A stretch of 64,000 nt of DNA from contig CAWJET010000001.1 in the NCBI GenBank assembly GCA_963842085.1, forward strand, positions 2,656,001-2,720,000. Direction: 5' to 3'. Under the pieces are notes generated by a model, which worked only from the letters and a program-made list of their open reading frames with translations, was not told where the DNA came from and searched no databases. This DNA is from an uncultured delta proteobacterium. GTDB lineage: Bacteria > Desulfobacterota > Binatia > Binatales > Binataceae. Below are positions 1,006-57,595 of the stretch, in pieces (the first letter of the stretch is position 1; every line of letters begins with the position of its first letter). Both the position numbers and the translations under genes were made by a program.

Positions 1006-2835
1006 CTACTCGACCGTGACCGACTTGGCGAGGTTGCGGGGCTGATCGACGTCGGTGCCGCGTTCCGACGCGATGTGATAGGCGAGCAACTGGAGCGGTA
1101 CCGTCATCAGCACCGGCGTCAGCATCCGGTTCGTCTCCGGGACCTCGATAATTTCCCCGACGCTTTTCAGCTCGGCAGTCGCGTGATTAGTCACCGCGAT
1201 AATCCGGCCGTTGCGCGATTCGACTTCCTTGAGATTCGACATCGTCTTTTCGAACAGATCGTCATTGGGAATTATCACCACCACCGGCATCTTGTCGTCG
1301 ATAAGCGCGATCGGCCCGTGCTTCATCTCGCCCGCGGAATAACCCTCGGCGTGGATGTAGGAAATTTCCTTGAGTTTGAGCGCGCCCTCCAGCGCGATCG
1401 GGTAGTTGATGCCGCGGCCAAGGAACAGGAAGTCCTTGGCCGGCGCGTACTTGCGCGCGATATTCTGAATATTCGGCTCGCTCTCGAATATCGTTTTGAT
1501 CTGTCCGGGGATCGCGAACGCCGGCTTTAACAACTGGGCGGAGTCCGCGTCGGACAGGCGTCCCATCCGCGCCGCCAGGTGAATCGCGAACAGGTAGTAA
1601 GCCTCGAGCTGAGTGAGAAAGCATTTGGTGGTGGTGACGCTCGTCTCGGGACCGCATCGCGTGTACAACTGCGCGTCGGCCTTGCGCGCGATCGACGAGT
1701 CCACGGTGTTGGTGATTGCCAGCAGATGCGCGCCGTGCGCGCGTCCTTCTTCCATCGCGGCGATCGTGTCGGCGGTCTCGCCCGACTGCGACACGGCGAT
1801 GATCATCGTGCGGTCGTCGATCGGCGGCCGCCGATAGCGGAACTCGGATGAGTAATCGACCTCGACTGGAATCCCGGCGAGTTCCTCGATCATGAACTTG
1901 GCCACCTGCGCCGTGATCCACGACGCGCCCGCACCCAGCATCACGATTCGCCCGATCGCCGCAGGCCCGCCCGCCGGCAGCAATTCGCCTTCGAAGCGCA
2001 CCGTGGGTGAGCCTGCGTCCGCTCGCCCCGCCATCGTGTCGATCCATGCCTGCGGCTGGTCGTTGATTTCCTTGCGCAGGTAATGGCGAAAGCCGCCCTT
2101 GGTCGCGCCGACGGCGTCCCATTCGACTTGACGGGGCGCGCGACTGACCGCGGTACCGTCGAACTTCATCAGCCGCGCGGCGGTGGCCGTGACCTCGGCC
2201 AGCTCGCCGTCCTCGAGCACTATCGCGCGGCGCGTGTGTTCTAGAATCGCGGGAATATCCGAAGCGATGAAGTTCTCGCCGTCGCCCAGCCCCAGCACCA
2301 ACGGCGTCGCGGTCTTGGCGGCGACCAGCGTGCCGGGCTCGGTTTCCGACAGCACGACGATCGAGAACGAACCGCGGAGTCGCAGGACGGCCTCGCGCAC
2401 GGCCTCGGTCAGCCCGCGACCGCCTTTGAGCTTCTCCTCGATCAGGTGCGAAATGAGCTCGGTATCGGTTTCGGAGCGCAGTTTGTGCCCGCGCGCGAGC
2501 AGCTCGGTGCGCAGCTCGATGAAATTCTCGACGATACCGTTGTGGATGACTGCGACCGGGCCGGCTTTGTGCGGATGCGCGTTTTCCTCGGACGGGCGGC
2601 CGTGCGTTGCCCATCGTGTGTGCCCGATTCCGATATGGCCGCGCAGGGGCGAGTCGGCCAGTAGCAGGCGCAGGTTTTCGAGCTTGCCCTTCGCGCGGCG
2701 AATTTCGAGCTTGCCGCTATCGACGATCGTTGCGATGCCGGCCGAATCGTAACCGCGGTACTCCAGGCGGCCCAGTCCTTCGAGCAGGATAGGGTAGGCC
2801 TCGCTCGGCCCGACGTAGCCGATTATTCCGCACAT
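1006..2835 (-). CDS. glmS: Glutamine--fructose-6-phosphate transaminase (isomerizing)
   Basis: N-terminal MCGIIG (catalytic Cys1), GHTRWATHG, SQSGET and C-terminal DQPRNLAKSVTVE. Start set at ATG 2835, which follows an AGGAG RBS. Confidence 0.98.
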   Translation of the reverse strand: MCGIIGYVGPSEAYPILLEGLGRLEYRGYDSAGIATIVDSGKLEIRRAKGKLENLRLLLADSPLRGHIGIGHTRWATHGRPSEENAHPHKAGPVAVIHNGIVENFIELRTELLARGHKLRSETDTELISHLIEEKLKGGRGLTEAVREAVLRLRGSFSIVVLSETEPGTLVAAKTATPLVLGLGDGENFIASDIPAILEHTRRAIVLEDGELAEVTATAARLMKFDGTAVSRAPRQVEWDAVGATKGGFRHYLRKEINDQPQAWIDTMAGRADAGSPTVRFEGELLPAGGPAAIGRIVMLGAGASWITAQVAKFMIEELAGIPVEVDYSSEFRYRRPPIDDRTMIIAVSQSGETADTIAAMEEGRAHGAHLLAITNTVDSSIARKADAQLYTRCGPETSVTTTKCFLTQLEAYYLFAIHLAARMGRLSDADSAQLLKPAFAIPGQIKTIFESEPNIQNIARKYAPAKDFLFLGRGINYPIALEGALKLKEISYIHAEGYSAGEMKHGPIALIDDKMPVVVIIPNDDLFEKTMSNLKEVESRNGRIIAVTNHATAELKSVGEIIEVPETNRMLTPVLMTVPLQLLAYHIASERGTDVDQPRNLAKSVTVE

Positions 2836-2968
2836 GATGGTTCGCTCCTTTCCCTGCAAACGCAGGGAAGGTTACAGAGTTGTTCCGACGCACACAGACG
2901 GAGCGAAACGATAGCCAAATGATTCTGTCAGGAGAGTTTAGAAAATCACGTCAGAGCAGGATGCTCTG

Positions 2969-3118
2969 CCACTGGAGGCGTTTTTTGTCGCGCGGTCGCC
3001 CGCACGGTTTGTTCACTACTCGCCTCTATCGACTGTGGAGCCGGGAAGCCATCCGCCGAATCTTTCGATACTGCTTCCACCTCGTCAACTCATGCGATGC
3101 GCATGAGTCCTGGCGCTA
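2969..3118 (-). ncRNA. glmS ribozyme (GlcN6P-activated self-cleaving riboswitch)
   Basis: Minus strand reads A^GCGCCAGG ACUCAUGCG-CAU-CGCAUGAGU (P1) UGACGAGG U GGAAGC AGUAUCGAAAGAUUCGGCGGAUG GCUUCC (P2/core) CGGCU-CCAC-AGUCG (P3) ... GAGGCG..ACAAAC CGUGCGG-GCGA-CCGCGCG ACAAAAAA CGCCUC (P4/P4.1, GNRA loop) CA GUGG (P3.1 pseudoknot with CCAC). Located directly 5' of glmS. Confidence 0.93.
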
Positions 3119-3166
3119 CTCTCGATTGTCGTCTTCTATCGCTTCGACCGTCACCTCGTTCCGATG

Positions 3167-3195
3167 ATTATTTCTTTTCAGGAGACTTGGTTCAA
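3167..3195 (-). promoter_or_regulatory. Candidate sigma70 promoter upstream of the glmS ribozyme
   Basis: TTGAAC-N17-AATAAT on the minus strand, just downstream of the glmU stop. Confidence 0.3.
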
Positions 3196-3209
3196 GCTAC
3201 GTGATGACA

Positions 3210-4631
3210 TCAATCATGCTTCTTGCGCCGCAGGTTGCCGTCGGGGCTGTCGTTGTGGCGCTTGCGCCAGGTTGCCATCCAGCCGGACTTTTCGCGCTGC
3301 GGGTGGTGCGACATCACGAGCGCGCCGTCGGGCACCTCGCGGACGATCGTCGTTCCTGACGCCACGTACACGTCGCTGCCGACTTTCACCGGCGCGACCA
3401 GTTGCGTATCGCATCCGACCATGCAGCGGTCGCCGATCTCCGTGTGATGCTTGTCGTAGCCGTCGTAGTTCACGGTTATGACGCCGCATCCGATGTTGGT
3501 GTCGGCGCCGATTGTGGCGTCGCCGAGGTAACTCAGATGGCTGGCCTTGGTGCCGCGTCCGATGCGCGCCTTCTTAGTCTCGACGAAATTGCCAATCCGG
3601 TTGTGGCCGGCGAGTTCGGTGCCGGCGCGCAGGTTGGCGAACGGGCCAATTTCGGAGTCCTCGCCGATCACGCAGTCCTCGGCGCGCACGCCCAGCTTCA
3701 GATGGCATCGCGGGCCAATCGTCACGTTGCTGAGCCATGCGGTGCCGTCGATTCGCACGCCCTCGCCGAGCTTGCACGCGCCGAGAATCTGGACGTTGGG
3801 GCCGATCACGCAGTCGCGCGCGATTTCCGCCTGCTCCGAGATGTAGGTGCATGCGGGATCGACGAGCGTCACGCCGGATTGCATCAGTTTTCGGTTAACG
3901 GCTGCACGAATTTCCGCTTCCATATTTGCCAGCTCCTCACGCGAGTTGATGCCGGCGAATTCCGCCGGGTCATCAGCAACCCACGTTTCAATTCTTTCGC
4001 TACGCGCGCGCGCGATCGCAACGATATCGGTCAAGTAATACTCATCCTGGGCGTTGCCCGGCTTCAGTTCCGCAATCGCGGACCGGAGCAGGGCGCAATC
4101 GACCAAATAGCAGCCGGTGTTGATTTCCTTGATGGCGCGCTCGGCGGGCGACGCGTCGCGGAACTCGACGATTTTCTCGACCTTGCCGCCGGCGTCGCGC
4201 ATCACGCGGCCATAGGCGGCGGGATCGTCGAGAATGATACTGATGAACGAGAGCTTTGCGCGGCGCTTTCGATGTGCGTCGAGGAAGGCGCGCAGGGTTG
4301 ACGACTTGATGGTGGGCATGTCGCCGTAGGTGATCAGCACGTCACCGGTGAAGTTGGCGGGGAGCCGATCGAGGGCGCATCGCGCGGCGTCGCCGGTGCC
4401 GCGCTGCGGCTCCTGGAGCGCGAATCGCGCGTTCGGGGAGTTTACAGCGGCTGCGACTTCGCGCGCCTGGTGGCCGACGACGACGATGATTGGATCGGCG
4501 TCGATCGCGGCGACGGCGCGAACTGCGCGCGCGATCATCGGTTCTCCGCCAAGCTCGTGCAGGACCTTGGCGCGCTTCGAGCGCATCCTGGTCCCTTTGC
4601 CCGCGGCAAGGACGATCGTGGCGACGCTCAT
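3210..4631 (-). CDS. glmU: Bifunctional UDP-GlcNAc pyrophosphorylase / GlcN-1-P acetyltransferase
   Basis: LAAGKGTRM, GTGDA, EYYLTD, hexapeptide repeats, HLSYLGD, NYDG. Confidence 0.97.
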   Translation of the reverse strand: MSVATIVLAAGKGTRMRSKRAKVLHELGGEPMIARAVRAVAAIDADPIIVVVGHQAREVAAAVNSPNARFALQEPQRGTGDAARCALDRLPANFTGDVLITYGDMPTIKSSTLRAFLDAHRKRRAKLSFISIILDDPAAYGRVMRDAGGKVEKIVEFRDASPAERAIKEINTGCYLVDCALLRSAIAELKPGNAQDEYYLTDIVAIARARSERIETWVADDPAEFAGINSREELANMEAEIRAAVNRKLMQSGVTLVDPACTYISEQAEIARDCVIGPNVQILGACKLGEGVRIDGTAWLSNVTIGPRCHLKLGVRAEDCVIGEDSEIGPFANLRAGTELAGHNRIGNFVETKKARIGRGTKASHLSYLGDATIGADTNIGCGVITVNYDGYDKHHTEIGDRCMVGCDTQLVAPVKVGSDVYVASGTTIVREVPDGALVMSHHPQREKSGWMATWRKRHNDSPDGNLRRKKHD

Positions 4632-4643
4632 GATCGCTGCGCG

Positions 4644-5072
4644 CTATTCGTAGTCATCGAAGTTCGAGACTTTCCACGTGTCGCCAGCCTTGCGCGCCGT
4701 TATCATCCAGTTGCGATTGAAGGTGCCGCCGTCGGGCACGTCGATGGTCGCGCGAAACAGGAACTGGATGTGGTCGGGGGCGTCGCGCTCGGCGGTGAGT
4801 TTGTAATGCACGGTGGGCTTGCGGGTGTTGGCGTCGATTTTCTGATCGCCGATTAGCTGCATCTCGCGATGAAGCTTGTCGAGCGCCAGGCCGGTGCAGA
4901 ATGGCTCGGCCGCCTTCAGATCGATCGCCACGTAGTATTGGTCGATGAAGCGATCGGCGACGCCGCGCGCGCTATTGGCCGGATGGCATCCGGTGGCGGC
5001 GAGCGAAGCGAGGGCCGCGACGAAGAGAAGCTCGGCGCAGCGGTCACGAAGCAGGGTGCGGCGCGATGTCAT
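4644..5072 (-). CDS. Hypothetical lipoprotein
   Basis: Start ATG 5072 overlaps the upstream stop. Signal peptide ends ...LAATGC; small alpha/beta domain ending WKVSNFDDYE. Confidence 0.7.
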   Translation of the reverse strand: MTSRRTLLRDRCAELLFVAALASLAATGCHPANSARGVADRFIDQYYVAIDLKAAEPFCTGLALDKLHREMQLIGDQKIDANTRKPTVHYKLTAERDAPDHIQFLFRATIDVPDGGTFNRNWMITARKAGDTWKVSNFDDYE

Positions 5073-5356
5073 GATTTTTTCTTGAAGAGAGCCTCCAGCT
5101 TGTCCTGCGCGCCAGATTTCGCGAGCGGCTTTGCGGCCGCGTCGCTCGGAAAAAAGTATTCGCAAAAATTAAATCGGTCCTTGTCCACCACCCGCTCCGC
5201 CATCGTCTCGCGGCAACTGTTGTTGTAGGCCGGATCGTAAAAGCCGCAGTTGCGGCATGCGTGGAGCGCGCGGCCGCATCCGGGACACTCGTCGCGAAAA
5301 CCGATGCGGTCGCCGGCGAGGACTTCGATTTTTCTGGTGCAATGCCAACAGTTCAT
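5069..5356 (-). CDS. Small Cys-rich (double Zn-ribbon-like) protein
   Basis: MNCWHC...CPGC..HACRNC...C...NFCEYF; 8 Cys in 95 aa. Confidence 0.8.
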   Translation of the reverse strand: MNCWHCTRKIEVLAGDRIGFRDECPGCGRALHACRNCGFYDPAYNNSCRETMAERVVDKDRFNFCEYFFPSDAAAKPLAKSGAQDKLEALFKKKS

Positions 5357-6364: not shown

Positions 6365-6917
6365 CCAGGGTATCGAGCCGGGCGCCGAAATTCGCCACAC
6401 GACCATTCTGAGCGTGCGCCACGAGGGCCACGTCGTAATGGCGGGTGACGGGCAGGTGAGCGTTGGGCAAACGATCATGAAGGCCAAGGCGAAGAAGGTG
6501 CGCCGGCTGCATCAGGATCGCGTGCTGGCGGGATTCGCAGGCTCGACCGCGGACGCGCTGACGCTGTTCGACAAGTTCGAATCGAAGCTGCAGGAATATA
6601 ACGGCGTGCTTCGGCGCGCGGCGGTCGAGCTGGCCAAGGATTGGCGCACGGATCGAATCCTGCGCCGGCTCGAGGCGATGCTGGTAGTCGCGGACAAGGA
6701 AAGCTCGCTGCTTATTTCGGGCGTCGGCGACGTGCTCGAGCCCGACGATGGAATCCTGGCGATCGGATCGGGCGGCAACTACGCGTTATCGGCGGCGCGC
6801 GCGCTGGTACGGCACGGCTCGGGGATGACGGCGCGACAGATCGCCGAAGGCGCGATGAAAATCGCCTCGGAGGTCTGCGTTTACACCAACGATCAATTCG
6901 TGTTCGAAGAGTTGTAG
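6345..6917 (+). CDS. hslV: ATP-dependent protease peptidase subunit HslV
   Basis: Short leader followed by [27 protein letters not shown]. Confidence 0.97.
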
Positions 6918-6942
6918 CCACAGGATCCGGGAATCCAACGAG

Positions 6943-8313
<1,371 letters not shown>

Positions 8314-8857: not shown

Positions 8858-9676
8858 ATGCAGCCAAAATGGGAGCTAACCCTTGGTGCGGTTAGGGGAT
8901 TCAATCTGCCGGAGAGGATTATTGCGGAAGAGCATCGCCTGAGGAGAGCACTTTCTGTGCACTGCAATGGACCTTATAACGAGGCCGGAACCAATCTCGG
9001 ATTGGCTCTTTATGTTGAAGGGGATAATCAGCCATTGGATTGCGGAGGGATAAAGATTGAGCCTTTCAAGAAGAACAATATCGGGGCTCGAATCTTTATT
9101 CGTAAGGCTGACTGGAGTGCCGACGCTCCAGCGTACCGGCGTTTCCTATGGAAGAACGTGGAAAGGGCCATTTGGGGTTGCGTGGAGACCTTGGACAAGA
9201 AACAAGTTTCGTTAGACGTGGATAGGCTTCGCCGCGATCTCTCTCTTGTCGAAGAGGCGTTTCTCGGGGTCGATCTGGAATCAAAGTCCAGATCGAATGC
9301 GCCTGAGCCTGCGGAGACCAAAGAGCAGGTGTCCTTCGACGAGACTTCCGAAGATGAAATGGATCGGATCGTCGTTCAATACCGGATCGAAGGCCATGGA
9401 AACGGGCAGGATCACGACAAGAGAGTCGCGGTCGAGAAAATTCTTGAGGAATGCCTGAGTGAAGGCGACTTGGGGAACTGTGATGGCGGGGACATCGGCA
9501 GCGGTACGATAAATGTCTTTTGCTTCGTCTCAGACGCTGAAAAGGCAAGGGAGCCTATCCTCCAAACTCTGCGCAACAACGGCTTTCTTGAAGGCGCAGT
9601 GATCCAGGAGACGGTGAAGGGCGAGGACAAAGTCGTGTGGCCTCCCGACTACGTAGGCGAGTTTAGCATCGTGTGA
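8858..9676 (+). CDS. Two-domain hypothetical protein, possibly immunity-protein-like
   Basis: 272-aa ORF with atypical codon usage; acidic linker; C-terminal domain contains GNCDGGDIGSGTINVFCFV. Function is inferred only. Confidence 0.75.
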   Translation: MQPKWELTLGAVRGFNLPERIIAEEHRLRRALSVHCNGPYNEAGTNLGLALYVEGDNQPLDCGGIKIEPFKKNNIGARIFIRKADWSADAPAYRRFLWKNVERAIWGCVETLDKKQVSLDVDRLRRDLSLVEEAFLGVDLESKSRSNAPEPAETKEQVSFDETSEDEMDRIVVQYRIEGHGNGQDHDKRVAVEKILEECLSEGDLGNCDGGDIGSGTINVFCFVSDAEKAREPILQTLRNNGFLEGAVIQETVKGEDKVVWPPDYVGEFSIV

Positions 9677-56224: not shown

Positions 56225-57595
56225 TTGGCGCCTTCGATGTCGTTCTCCTCACAAGACAGGCGAGCTGACGAGAAACTCGGGTTAATCCTGGGTAAAGTCG
56301 GTTCCGTACGCACGCGACTGAACTCGCTGGCAATCCAGCATGCGATTTTCTACACCCTCGCGATCGCGATCGCAGGCGGCGCCGTCATATTTGCCGGCGC
56401 GTCCTTGCTGTCGCCGCTCCCGTTCCTGATTGGCAGCTCGGTGCTGGTGGTTATCGCAGCCGTCGGCATTGTGGGCGCGATCGGCGCAGGCTGGAAAATG
56501 CGCGCCAGCGCGGTGCGCGCCGCGGCGGTGGCCGACGATCGCGCCGAGCTGAAGGGCCGTCTCTCGACAATCGTCGCGCTCGAGCGCAGCGAGGGCCGTG
56601 GCCCGCTGTGGCCATACCTGGTTGAGGATACGCTTGCCTGCCAGGACCAATTCGAGGCTGCGCGGATCGAACGGCGCCGAGTCTCGCGCGCGATCTATCC
56701 TCTGGCTGGAGCAATCGTGCTGGCGGCGCTCGCGCTTCCGATTTCGAGGATCAAGCGCGCGCCACAAATCATCCCGGGCGACGGGCAGAACGACGTGACG
56801 GTCGATCTGGACGACCTGCATTTGCGGCCGGCCGAACCGGGCGATGGATCGGGAATGCAGGTCACGGCCAACGCCGCGACCATGCGCCGGCTCGAGGACA
56901 AATTGGCGCGCGAGGGCGCCGCGAATGGCGACGCCGGCGGCAATTCGCTGAACCAACTGGTGAATCGTGCGCGCGACATGGCCGCGAACTTACAGAGCAA
57001 GCTGACCGGACAGCGGGCGCCCTCCAAGCAGCGCCTGACCTTGCGGCTGGCCGACGCCGGCAACGATCAGGATCGGAACGAAATTCATCGTGCGCCCGAT
57101 TCGCAGACGAATCGGCACAGCGACGTTGCGGGACAGTTCAAACAGGAACAGCCAAGTTCCAACCACGAAATCGATCTGCCCAAGCAGGACGATTCGCGTC
57201 AGCCGAATTCGGAGCCGTCGCCCGGCGGCAACGGTGAGGCGAGCGTAGAGTCCGACGCCGGCAACAACAATCCCAATCAGGACGAGAGTGCGACCGATCG
57301 CAGCGTCCAGCAAAGCGGCGAGAACAGCAGCAACGGCGGCTCGGCGCATGGAATCGGGGCCGATCCCGACAGCCTGTTCGGCGCGCCCGCAGCGGCGAAA
57401 CTCGGCAGCGAGGGTTTCGAGATCGCAATCGAAGCGCGACCGGTCGATCGCGGCGCGAAGGGCGCCGGCCGCGCCTACGTTCCTCCCAAAGTGCGCACGC
57501 CGCTCAGCCTGAACCAGGAGCCGGACGAGCCGGTGGCGCGCGCCGCGGTGCCGGCCGACGATCGAACCACTATCAAGCGGGTATTCGAAAGATGA
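56225..57595 (+). CDS. Membrane-anchored protein with a long polar disordered region (MoxR operon accessory)
   Basis: Three TM segments, D.RAELKGRLST motif, Q/N/S/G-rich tract, C-terminal VPADDRTTIKRVFE. Confidence 0.75.
   Translation: MAPSMSFSSQDRRADEKLGLILGKVGSVRTRLNSLAIQHAIFYTLAIAIAGGAVIFAGASLLSPLPFLIGSSVLVVIAAVGIVGAIGAGWKMRASAVRAAAVADDRAELKGRLSTIVALERSEGRGPLWPYLVEDTLACQDQFEAARIERRRVSRAIYPLAGAIVLAALALPISRIKRAPQIIPGDGQNDVTVDLDDLHLRPAEPGDGSGMQVTANAATMRRLEDKLAREGAANGDAGGNSLNQLVNRARDMAANLQSKLTGQRAPSKQRLTLRLADAGNDQDRNEIHRAPDSQTNRHSDVAGQFKQEQPSSNHEIDLPKQDDSRQPNSEPSPGGNGEASVESDAGNNNPNQDESATDRSVQQSGENSSNGGSAHGIGADPDSLFGAPAAAKLGSEGFEIAIEARPVDRGAKGAGRAYVPPKVRTPLSLNQEPDEPVARAAVPADDRTTIKRVFER

Follow-up and report, generated by a model that had tools for sequence, protein, structure and literature searches.

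A glmS ribozyme upstream of glmS in a Candidatus Binatus bacterium and its probable role in feedback control

The glmU–glmS locus and its host

We analysed a stretch of 64,000 nucleotides of DNA (the window) from an uncultured soil bacterium, in which glmU and glmS follow one another on the minus strand with an RNA element of the glmS ribozyme family between them (Table 1). The order glmU then glmS, claimed in a first-pass annotation made from the sequence alone, is borne out by the TIGR01173 and TIGR01135 matches of the two proteins, encoded on the same strand. The distance from the glmU stop codon to the predicted cleavage site is 92 nt, and the ribozyme ends at position 2966, 130 nt before the ATG of glmS. 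It therefore lies directly 5′ of glmS and on the same strand, an arrangement also seen in 56 of 59 distinct relatives, where glmS starts 121–232 nt downstream (a median spacer of 130 nt over the 56 loci). Upstream, xerC and hslU are found on the opposite strand. Three open reading frames of the window, at 4644–5165 (minus strand), 8858–9676 (plus) and 56225–57595 (plus), encode 173, 272 and 456 amino acids and are without a Pfam match at E ≤ 1e-5; only 13 nt separate the end of the first from glmU, with which it may share a transcript.

The genome from which the window derives is 4.93 Mb in size, in 2 contigs, and 100% complete. The closest GlmU loci in public genomes (85–96% identity) belong mostly to Candidatus Binatus, Binataceae or ‘uncultured delta proteobacterium’, and Binatus is placed by the NCBI taxonomy in the Binataceae, Binatales, Binatia and Candidatus Binatota. 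BamA (607 bits) and LpxC (244 bits) are both encoded in the genome. Together with the Binatus-type GlmU relatives, these genes identify the host as a non-Firmicute with the genes for a lipopolysaccharide-containing outer membrane, so that the diderm, non-Firmicute host proposed in the first-pass annotation stands; the outer-membrane beta-barrel gene that it had cited was not found among the 12 open reading frames of the window that were scanned. Also encoded are RNase J (TIGR00649; 464 bits against a cut-off of 400), RNase E/G (497 bits) and a protein with a RapZ-like N-terminal domain (150 bits).

Table 1. Genes and RNA or promoter features at the glmU–glmS locus, with positions in the window.
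Feature	Position	Strand	Evidence or remark
glmU (bifunctional UDP-GlcNAc diphosphorylase / GlcN-1-P acetyltransferase), 473 aa	3210–4631	−	TIGR01173, 525 bits, cut-off 367; stop codon 3212–3210
glmS (glutamine--fructose-6-phosphate transaminase), 609 aa	1006–2835	−	TIGR01135, 773 bits, cut-off 418; ATG 2835–2833
Predicted sigma-70-type promoter, TTGAAC (3195–3190), 17-nt spacer, AATAAT (3172–3167)	3167–3195	−	Consensus scan; starts 15 nt after glmU stop
Shine-Dalgarno-like GAGGUGA in leader removed by predicted cleavage	3151–3157	−	GAGGT in 54/59 leaders
glmS ribozyme (GlcN6P-activated self-cleaving riboswitch, family assignment)	2966–3128	−	RF00234 and covariation over 60 sequences
P0, 5′ strand GAGAGU (−7 to −2)	3118–3123	−	5/6 positions invariant in 60 sequences; first G kept in 59/60
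Predicted cleavage site UA^GCGCC, A(−1) 3117 / G(+1) 3116	3116–3117	−	Alignment to RF00234 consensus aAGCGCC
P1, nine Watson-Crick pairs and a closing G-U	3109–3087	−	
Core segments GACGAGG and UUCGGCGGAUG		−	
P2, GGAAGC with GCUUCC	3078–3073 with 3049–3044	−	
P2a, UCGA with UCGG		−	
P3, CGGCU with AGUCG	3043–3039 with 3034–3030	−	
P3.1, CCAC with GUGG	3038–3035 with 2972–2969	−	
P4, GAGGCG with CGCCUC	3026–3021 with 2980–2975	−	
P4.1, GCGA cap	3006–3000 with 2995–2989	−	
P5 hairpin, CAGAGC-loop-GCUCUG, directly after P3.1 GUGG	2952–2968	−	Both-side changes in 4/6 pairs
P0, 3′ strand ACUCUC, inside conserved AAACUCUCC	2932–2937	−	55/59 sequences, 28–35 nt after GUGG
Hairpin 2869–2862 with 2857–2850, abutting glmS Shine-Dalgarno AGGAG (2849–2845)	2845–2869	−	MFE fold

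Structure and conservation of the ribozyme

When all 64 kb were searched with cmscan and Rfam 15, the sole above-threshold match in the window was that to RF00234 (glmS), which scores 76.1 bits against a gathering score of 37 (E = 1.1e-15) and spans positions 1–167 of the 167 in the model. A permissive Rfam scan of 2700–3300 returned nothing besides the glmS ribozyme at E ≤ 1, and a search of the 4.93-Mb genome with the Rfam model found the element in single copy. The first-pass annotation had read a complete glmS ribozyme at this place, had listed its elements and had proposed a covariance-model search with the Rfam glmS model as a check. That search is positive at twice the cut-off and full length, each of the listed elements is present in the minus-strand sequence, and the span originally given (2969–3118) corresponds to the core, the Rfam match being a few flanking bases wider. 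The standard Rfam model finds the element at once, and annotation pipelines that run Rfam models would do so too.

The cleavage context A^GCGCC and the core segments GACGAGG, AUCGA...UUCGGCGGAUG and ACAAA are all present here and are invariant in 60 Binataceae sequences. The CGCC that lies 3′ of the cleavage site is complementary to GGCG within UUCGGCGGAUG, both segments being invariant, and this pairing is presumably that of the P2.2 scheme of the glmS ribozyme.

An nhmmer search with the window's ribozyme yielded 82 loci with 63 distinct cores among the retrieved DNA of relatives. The alignment made from these holds 60 distinct sequences, with three from unpublished genomes omitted (one of them replaced by its public twin, L029) along with one cut by a contig end. 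For the 51 pairs of the named structure, 98.7% of cells in the 60 sequences pair, compared with 28–41% when the partners are slid; both sides have changed in 19 of the 51 pairs, and on none of five measures is the alignment reached by any of 500 shuffles. RNAalifold recovers P1, P2, P2a, P3, P4 and P4.1 with 15 compensatory pairs, and within each of these helices 97.6–100% of cells pair. Both-side changes affect four pairs of P1, one each of P2 and P3, five of P4 and three of P4.1, P2a being invariant. The P3.1 pairing (99.6% of cells) is near-invariant and hence without covariation. Folding energies of single sequences were no different from those of shuffles (z = −0.95 and −1.30). Judged from the alignment, the ribozyme structure is under purifying selection, and the pattern is that of a working RNA rather than a relic.

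The full-model match at twice the cut-off, the invariant core and the compensatory changes in P1, P2, P3, P4 and P4.1 across several genera also weigh heavily against an inactive relic, that is, a ribozyme-like sequence that does not cleave, with glmS controlled in some other way. We regard a relic as highly improbable here, even though inactive members of the family have been reported elsewhere: two Fusobacterium candidates are reported as inactive in vitro in the accessible portion of Esser and Mayer (2022; PMC10099748). In the Binataceae themselves one genome has only a sub-threshold match of 26 bits, so decay may well happen within the family.

The Binataceae sequences also carry lineage-specific additions to the ribozyme, which we call P0 and P5. 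P0 is a predicted 6-bp helix between the hexamer just 5′ of the cleavage site and a conserved segment of the tail, in which 99.4% of cells pair. Its exceptions are one sequence with AAGAGU and ACUCUU, which is a compensatory change, one with a G-U pair and two with one mismatch. A full complement to the sequence's own −7 to −2 hexamer occurs in 59 of 59 tails against about 21% of shuffled tails, a comparison in which the sequences are related and not independent. In the MFE fold of the window RNA P0 is formed and encloses the whole ribozyme, and it is absent from the centroid structure. Such a helix would enclose the ribozyme and hold the 5′ cleavage fragment. P5 was flagged as terminator-like by a scan, a role that we rejected; because it covaries and has no conserved U-run in other genera, we read it as a structural hairpin.

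A further conserved element is the strong Shine-Dalgarno-like GAGGUGA near the 5′ end of the leader, which in the longer leaders is preceded by an extra 5′ hairpin. A leader peptide can be set aside, with no ATG, GTG or TTG within about 12 nt downstream of this motif. GAGGUGA might be a 5′ stabiliser.

Promoter, linkage to glmU and proposed mechanism

A consensus scan found one promoter site, against 0.3 expected, from which transcription would start near 3160. The corresponding best-scoring sites in 59 distinct ribozyme loci are strongly alike. The −35 hexamer is TTGAAC in 35 and TTGTGC in 10, the −10 hexamer is AATAAT in 36, GATAAT in 9 and CATAAT in 5, and the two are 17 nt apart in 50 of the 59. 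From the −10 box to the cleavage site the distance is 46–50 nt, or 67–78 nt in leaders with the extra 5′ hairpin, and the sequence of the 17-nt promoter spacer varies freely while the hexamers stay conserved. The promoter score is at least 9 of 12 in 39 of the 59 loci, and in three loci the scoring chose another site though a GAATAAT box is visible in the leader. Conservation of the hexamers around a spacer that is free to vary is the mark of a real promoter, which here is predicted by its resemblance to the consensus.

The connection of this unit with glmU is much looser. Among 36 glmU loci with a ribozyme downstream, the gap between gene and ribozyme is at most 130 nt in 15, 131–300 nt in 4 and more than 300 nt in 17, with a maximum of 2.9 kb, and the promoter–ribozyme–glmS unit is intact where 0.3–2.9 kb of other DNA separates it from glmU. 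Although the ribozyme is present in 31 of the 32 genomes from this genus, several of the glmU loci there are not followed by glmS within 3 kb. Since glmU is distant or unlinked in these congeners, the ribozyme travels with glmS and its own promoter. In one such gap an AAA ATPase fused to an Mrr-type restriction endonuclease domain is encoded between glmU and the promoter–ribozyme unit (L042:4838–6166); another holds a DNA methylase gene and, on the opposite strand, a SnoaL-domain gene (L037:5314–6309 and 6490–7050). The gap seems to accept defence-type cargo.

The ribozyme-free relatives look different. In 22 Binataceae loci that lack the ribozyme and have glmS after glmU, the spacer is 4–113 nt long in 20; of the other two, one is 485 nt (L064) and one is spurious, resulting from a broken frame. 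Promoter scores in the ribozyme-free spacers are only 6–8 of 12. Given how compact these spacers are, promoter, ribozyme and spacer make up a module of about 375 nt that a locus either has or cleanly lacks. The 485-nt spacer of L064 (4437–4923) was considered as a possible site of a decayed ribozyme and gave no Rfam match at E ≤ 1; the GlmS of this locus groups with those of ribozyme-bearing genes, and something else fills the slot.

These observations bear directly on whether the ribozyme acts chiefly in a glmU–glmS co-transcript, cleavage of which would leave a stable glmU part and a degraded glmS part, as with RNase E and GlmZ in E. coli. The two genes are on the same strand with only 92 nt from the glmU stop to the cleavage site, a scan found no terminator-like site between glmU and the ribozyme, so that read-through from glmU is possible, and the compact spacers of 20 of the 22 ribozyme-free loci suggest that co-transcription is probably ancestral. 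The arrangement in the ribozyme-bearing loci argues the other way. In almost all of the 59 distinct loci the promoter keeps a constant distance from the ribozyme that follows it, in 17 of 36 congener loci glmU and ribozyme are more than 300 nt apart, with the restriction-type, methylase and opposite-strand SnoaL-domain genes in the intervening DNA, and several glmU loci lack a downstream glmS in a genus where the ribozyme is near-universal (31/32 genomes). We consider action chiefly in a co-transcript to be possible, though on balance we doubt it. The first-pass annotation had proposed that cleavage could split a bicistronic mRNA and uncouple glmS from glmU. The adjacency of the genes and the lack of a terminator-like site between glmU and the ribozyme fit this proposal, whereas the conserved promoter and the distant glmU of many congeners count against it; uncoupling by cleavage would apply to read-through transcripts only and would be secondary at best.

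Logan contigs from RNA libraries of four studies, 85–95% alike and present in small shares, cover 2943–3172, and 3189–3375 is uncovered among the RNA-library contigs listed. They are consistent with transcription of the ribozyme region in relatives. One relative's contig crosses the −10 box into the promoter spacer, which would fit the co-transcript model as read-through from upstream but may equally reflect DNA in the library. Another starts at 3117 rather than at the expected 5′ end, 3116, and was given no weight. Because transcript ends cannot be read from contigs and the libraries may contain DNA, these data say nothing on co-transcription.

The reading that we prefer is that a functional glmS ribozyme-riboswitch feedback-controls glmS in this Candidatus Binatus bacterium, to which, on the comparative evidence, we assign a probability of roughly 0.8. 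In this scheme most transcription of glmS would begin at the gene's own sigma-70-type promoter, shortly after glmU, giving a transcript with, in order, a leader of about 45 nt, the ribozyme, a structured spacer of about 130 nt and glmS. Abundant glucosamine-6-phosphate (GlcN6P) would bind the preformed core and serve as cofactor for cleavage between A3117 and G3116, which would strip off the 5′ leader and leave the glmS mRNA with a 5′-OH end, and the host RNase J would then degrade the cleaved mRNA from 5′ to 3′, as in Bacillus subtilis. For the characterised ribozymes, the accessible portions of four papers describe GlcN6P as the cofactor, a 5′-OH end as the result of cleavage, and degradation of the product by RNase J1 in B. 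subtilis (PMC3997798, PMC4152352, PMC5473149, PMC10099748). For Binatus, the dependence of cleavage on the ligand, the point where transcription starts and the part of RNase J in decay are inferred.

The last step of this scheme might be carried out differently. The spacer between ribozyme and glmS is long (median 130 nt) and structured near the Shine-Dalgarno sequence: the hairpin abutting that sequence recurs in congeners with changed pairs, and in the predicted fold UUCGCUCC (about 2898–2891) pairs with the Shine-Dalgarno region GGAGCGAA (2848–2841). Loss of the leader could free ACUCUCC or other segments of the spacer to occlude the Shine-Dalgarno sequence, glmS being lowered mainly by refolding and not by RNase J. 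The co-conservation of GAGAGU (−7 to −2) and ACUCUC, with its one compensatory change, is in keeping with this, as is the presence in the host of RNase E/G, an enzyme that handles 5′-OH ends poorly. However, ACUCUCC can form only about 4 bp with the glmS Shine-Dalgarno sequence, and the anti-Shine-Dalgarno-like segment CGCUCC varies in congeneric spacers without compensation in its target. Moreover, RNase J is encoded in the genome, so a simpler, known route of decay is available, and we think it unlikely that refolding is the main means by which glmS is lowered.

Distribution, origin and relation to known systems

Of 151 Binataceae genomes, 68 have the ribozyme, and 12 of the 30 genera are represented among them. 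The pattern by genus is clean: 31 of 32 genomes in the window's own genus carry it, as do 11/11, 9/10, 5/6 and 3/3 in others, against 0/17, 0/13, 0/7, 0/7, 0/5 and 0/5 elsewhere in the family. A separate sample of relatives gave the ribozyme in 22 of 24 genomes of the same genus and in none of 16 from other families of the class. None was found in 133 genomes from 18 further families of the Binatia, nor in 150 genomes from elsewhere in the phylum. All of these distribution counts are from samples in which some genomes are incomplete, and they include the unpublished genomes G018, G023 and G084, omission of which shifts the counts by at most 3. RNase J is far more widespread, occurring in 145 of the 151 Binataceae genomes and 28 of the 30 genera (above the cut-off in 132 genomes; the tally includes seven unpublished ones). 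A link between RNase J and the ribozyme was therefore rejected, 28 of 30 genera against 12 of 30 giving no correlation; because it is found with or without the ribozyme, RNase J is permissive and not a correlate. These figures also answer the survey of relatives for ribozyme and RNase J that the first-pass annotation had suggested.

A few Binataceae genomes have weaker matches. The sole match in G085 (C180:3729–3843) is the sub-threshold one of 26 bits; G139 has a second match of 52 bits (C14:337–484) alongside one of 78 bits; and both matches in G151 are weak, at about 52 bits (C63:61098–61236 and C113:11803–11924). Decay, divergence or mixed genome bins could each account for such matches.

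The origin of the element was approached through GlmS, whose first 400 residues were used for a maximum-likelihood tree of 71 rows (45 with the ribozyme, 21 lacking it and 5 representing other Binatia families; L001, L002, L016 and L120 were omitted). It is the tree of a single gene, obtained by a quick search. The Binataceae proteins form one group with a support of 100, beside the five other Binatia, which indicates that glmS is native and leads us to reject a foreign glmS gene as the source. On this tree the ribozyme label changes five times, two of the changes being forced by well-supported branches: a clade of 17 ribozyme-free rows has a support of 97, and one ribozyme-bearing gene is sister to a ribozyme-free gene with a support of 99. 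A gain near the base of the Binataceae, or of a large part of the family, followed by several losses, is one history that fits this pattern, which proves no direction of change.

Taking these strands together, one can picture a Binataceae ancestor that acquired a promoter–ribozyme cassette horizontally without a foreign glmS. The cassette would have entered a compact glmU–glmS operon, making glmS separately transcribed and metabolite-controlled, and would later have gained parts undescribed for glmS ribozymes, namely the 6-bp P0 clamp and the Shine-Dalgarno-like GAGGUGA or 5′ hairpin. These parts could constitute a 5′ stabiliser, and its loss, combined with the 5′-OH end, would open the mRNA to attack by RNase J, RNase E being present in the host as well. 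As a whole, this joint reading is speculative and rather unlikely.

The glmS ribozyme is the textbook metabolite-dependent ribozyme and is usually described as a Gram-positive device. In the accessible portions of the sources, the class is said to be found in many Gram-positive bacteria (PMC5473149), and 5 of more than 450 representatives are listed as coming from Gram-negative bacteria, none of them verified (Esser and Mayer, 2022; PMC10099748). A full-text literature search found no paper on a Binatia riboswitch, a glmS ribozyme of the Deltaproteobacteria or glmS of the Binatota; the lineage may be listed in distribution surveys or supplements. What we describe is thus a known RNA family in a lineage for which we found no published description, and both the family and its logic are already well known. 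Nothing known of the mechanism of the glmS ribozyme family is changed by it. The points of interest are the type of host, the restricted distribution, the native glmS and the P0 and P5 additions. Presence in part of one family, with a native glmS and compact ribozyme-free spacers, makes the distribution a clean case for the gain and loss of a riboswitch without its gene. The Binataceae also offer many well-conserved natural variants in a host with lipopolysaccharide, BamA, RNase E and RNase J, and are therefore a good place to test whether a diderm can use the ribozyme route and how this relates to control based on RNase E.

Among known occurrences, those in Deinococcus radiodurans and Fusobacterium likewise have non-Firmicute hosts, and the D. 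radiodurans element was found by the same model in our control set. The Binataceae differ from both in phylum and in forming a large set (68 genomes) that is well conserved. With the glmS ribozymes of B. subtilis, B. anthracis and Thermoanaerobacter tengcongensis the Binatus element shares the family RF00234, the cleavage context, the core, P1 to P4.1 and the position 5′ of glmS, and, as in the B. subtilis system, the genome encodes an RNase J homologue that could carry out the decay step. Unlike the Bacillus and Thermoanaerobacter ribozymes, it occurs in a diderm of the Binatota with BamA and LpxC, stands directly after glmU and adds P5, a P0 across the cleavage site, the leader motif GAGGUGA and a structured spacer of about 130 nt.

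Comparison with the glmUS operon of E. coli is equally instructive. The gene order is the same, and in both cases RNA is cut between the two genes under GlcN6P feedback, as described for E. coli in the accessible portion of PMC4152352 and as predicted for Binatus. Binatus also encodes RNase E/G and a protein with a RapZ-like N-terminal domain. The latter says nothing on a GlmZ-type system, as such proteins are widespread and a match was also obtained in the B. subtilis control. The GlmZ small RNA (RF00083) had no match in the 100% complete genome, with the E. coli control found. The two systems differ in how the metabolite would be sensed and in how glmS is expressed: in Binatus sensing is predicted to take place in cis, by the ribozyme itself, and glmS has its own conserved promoter.
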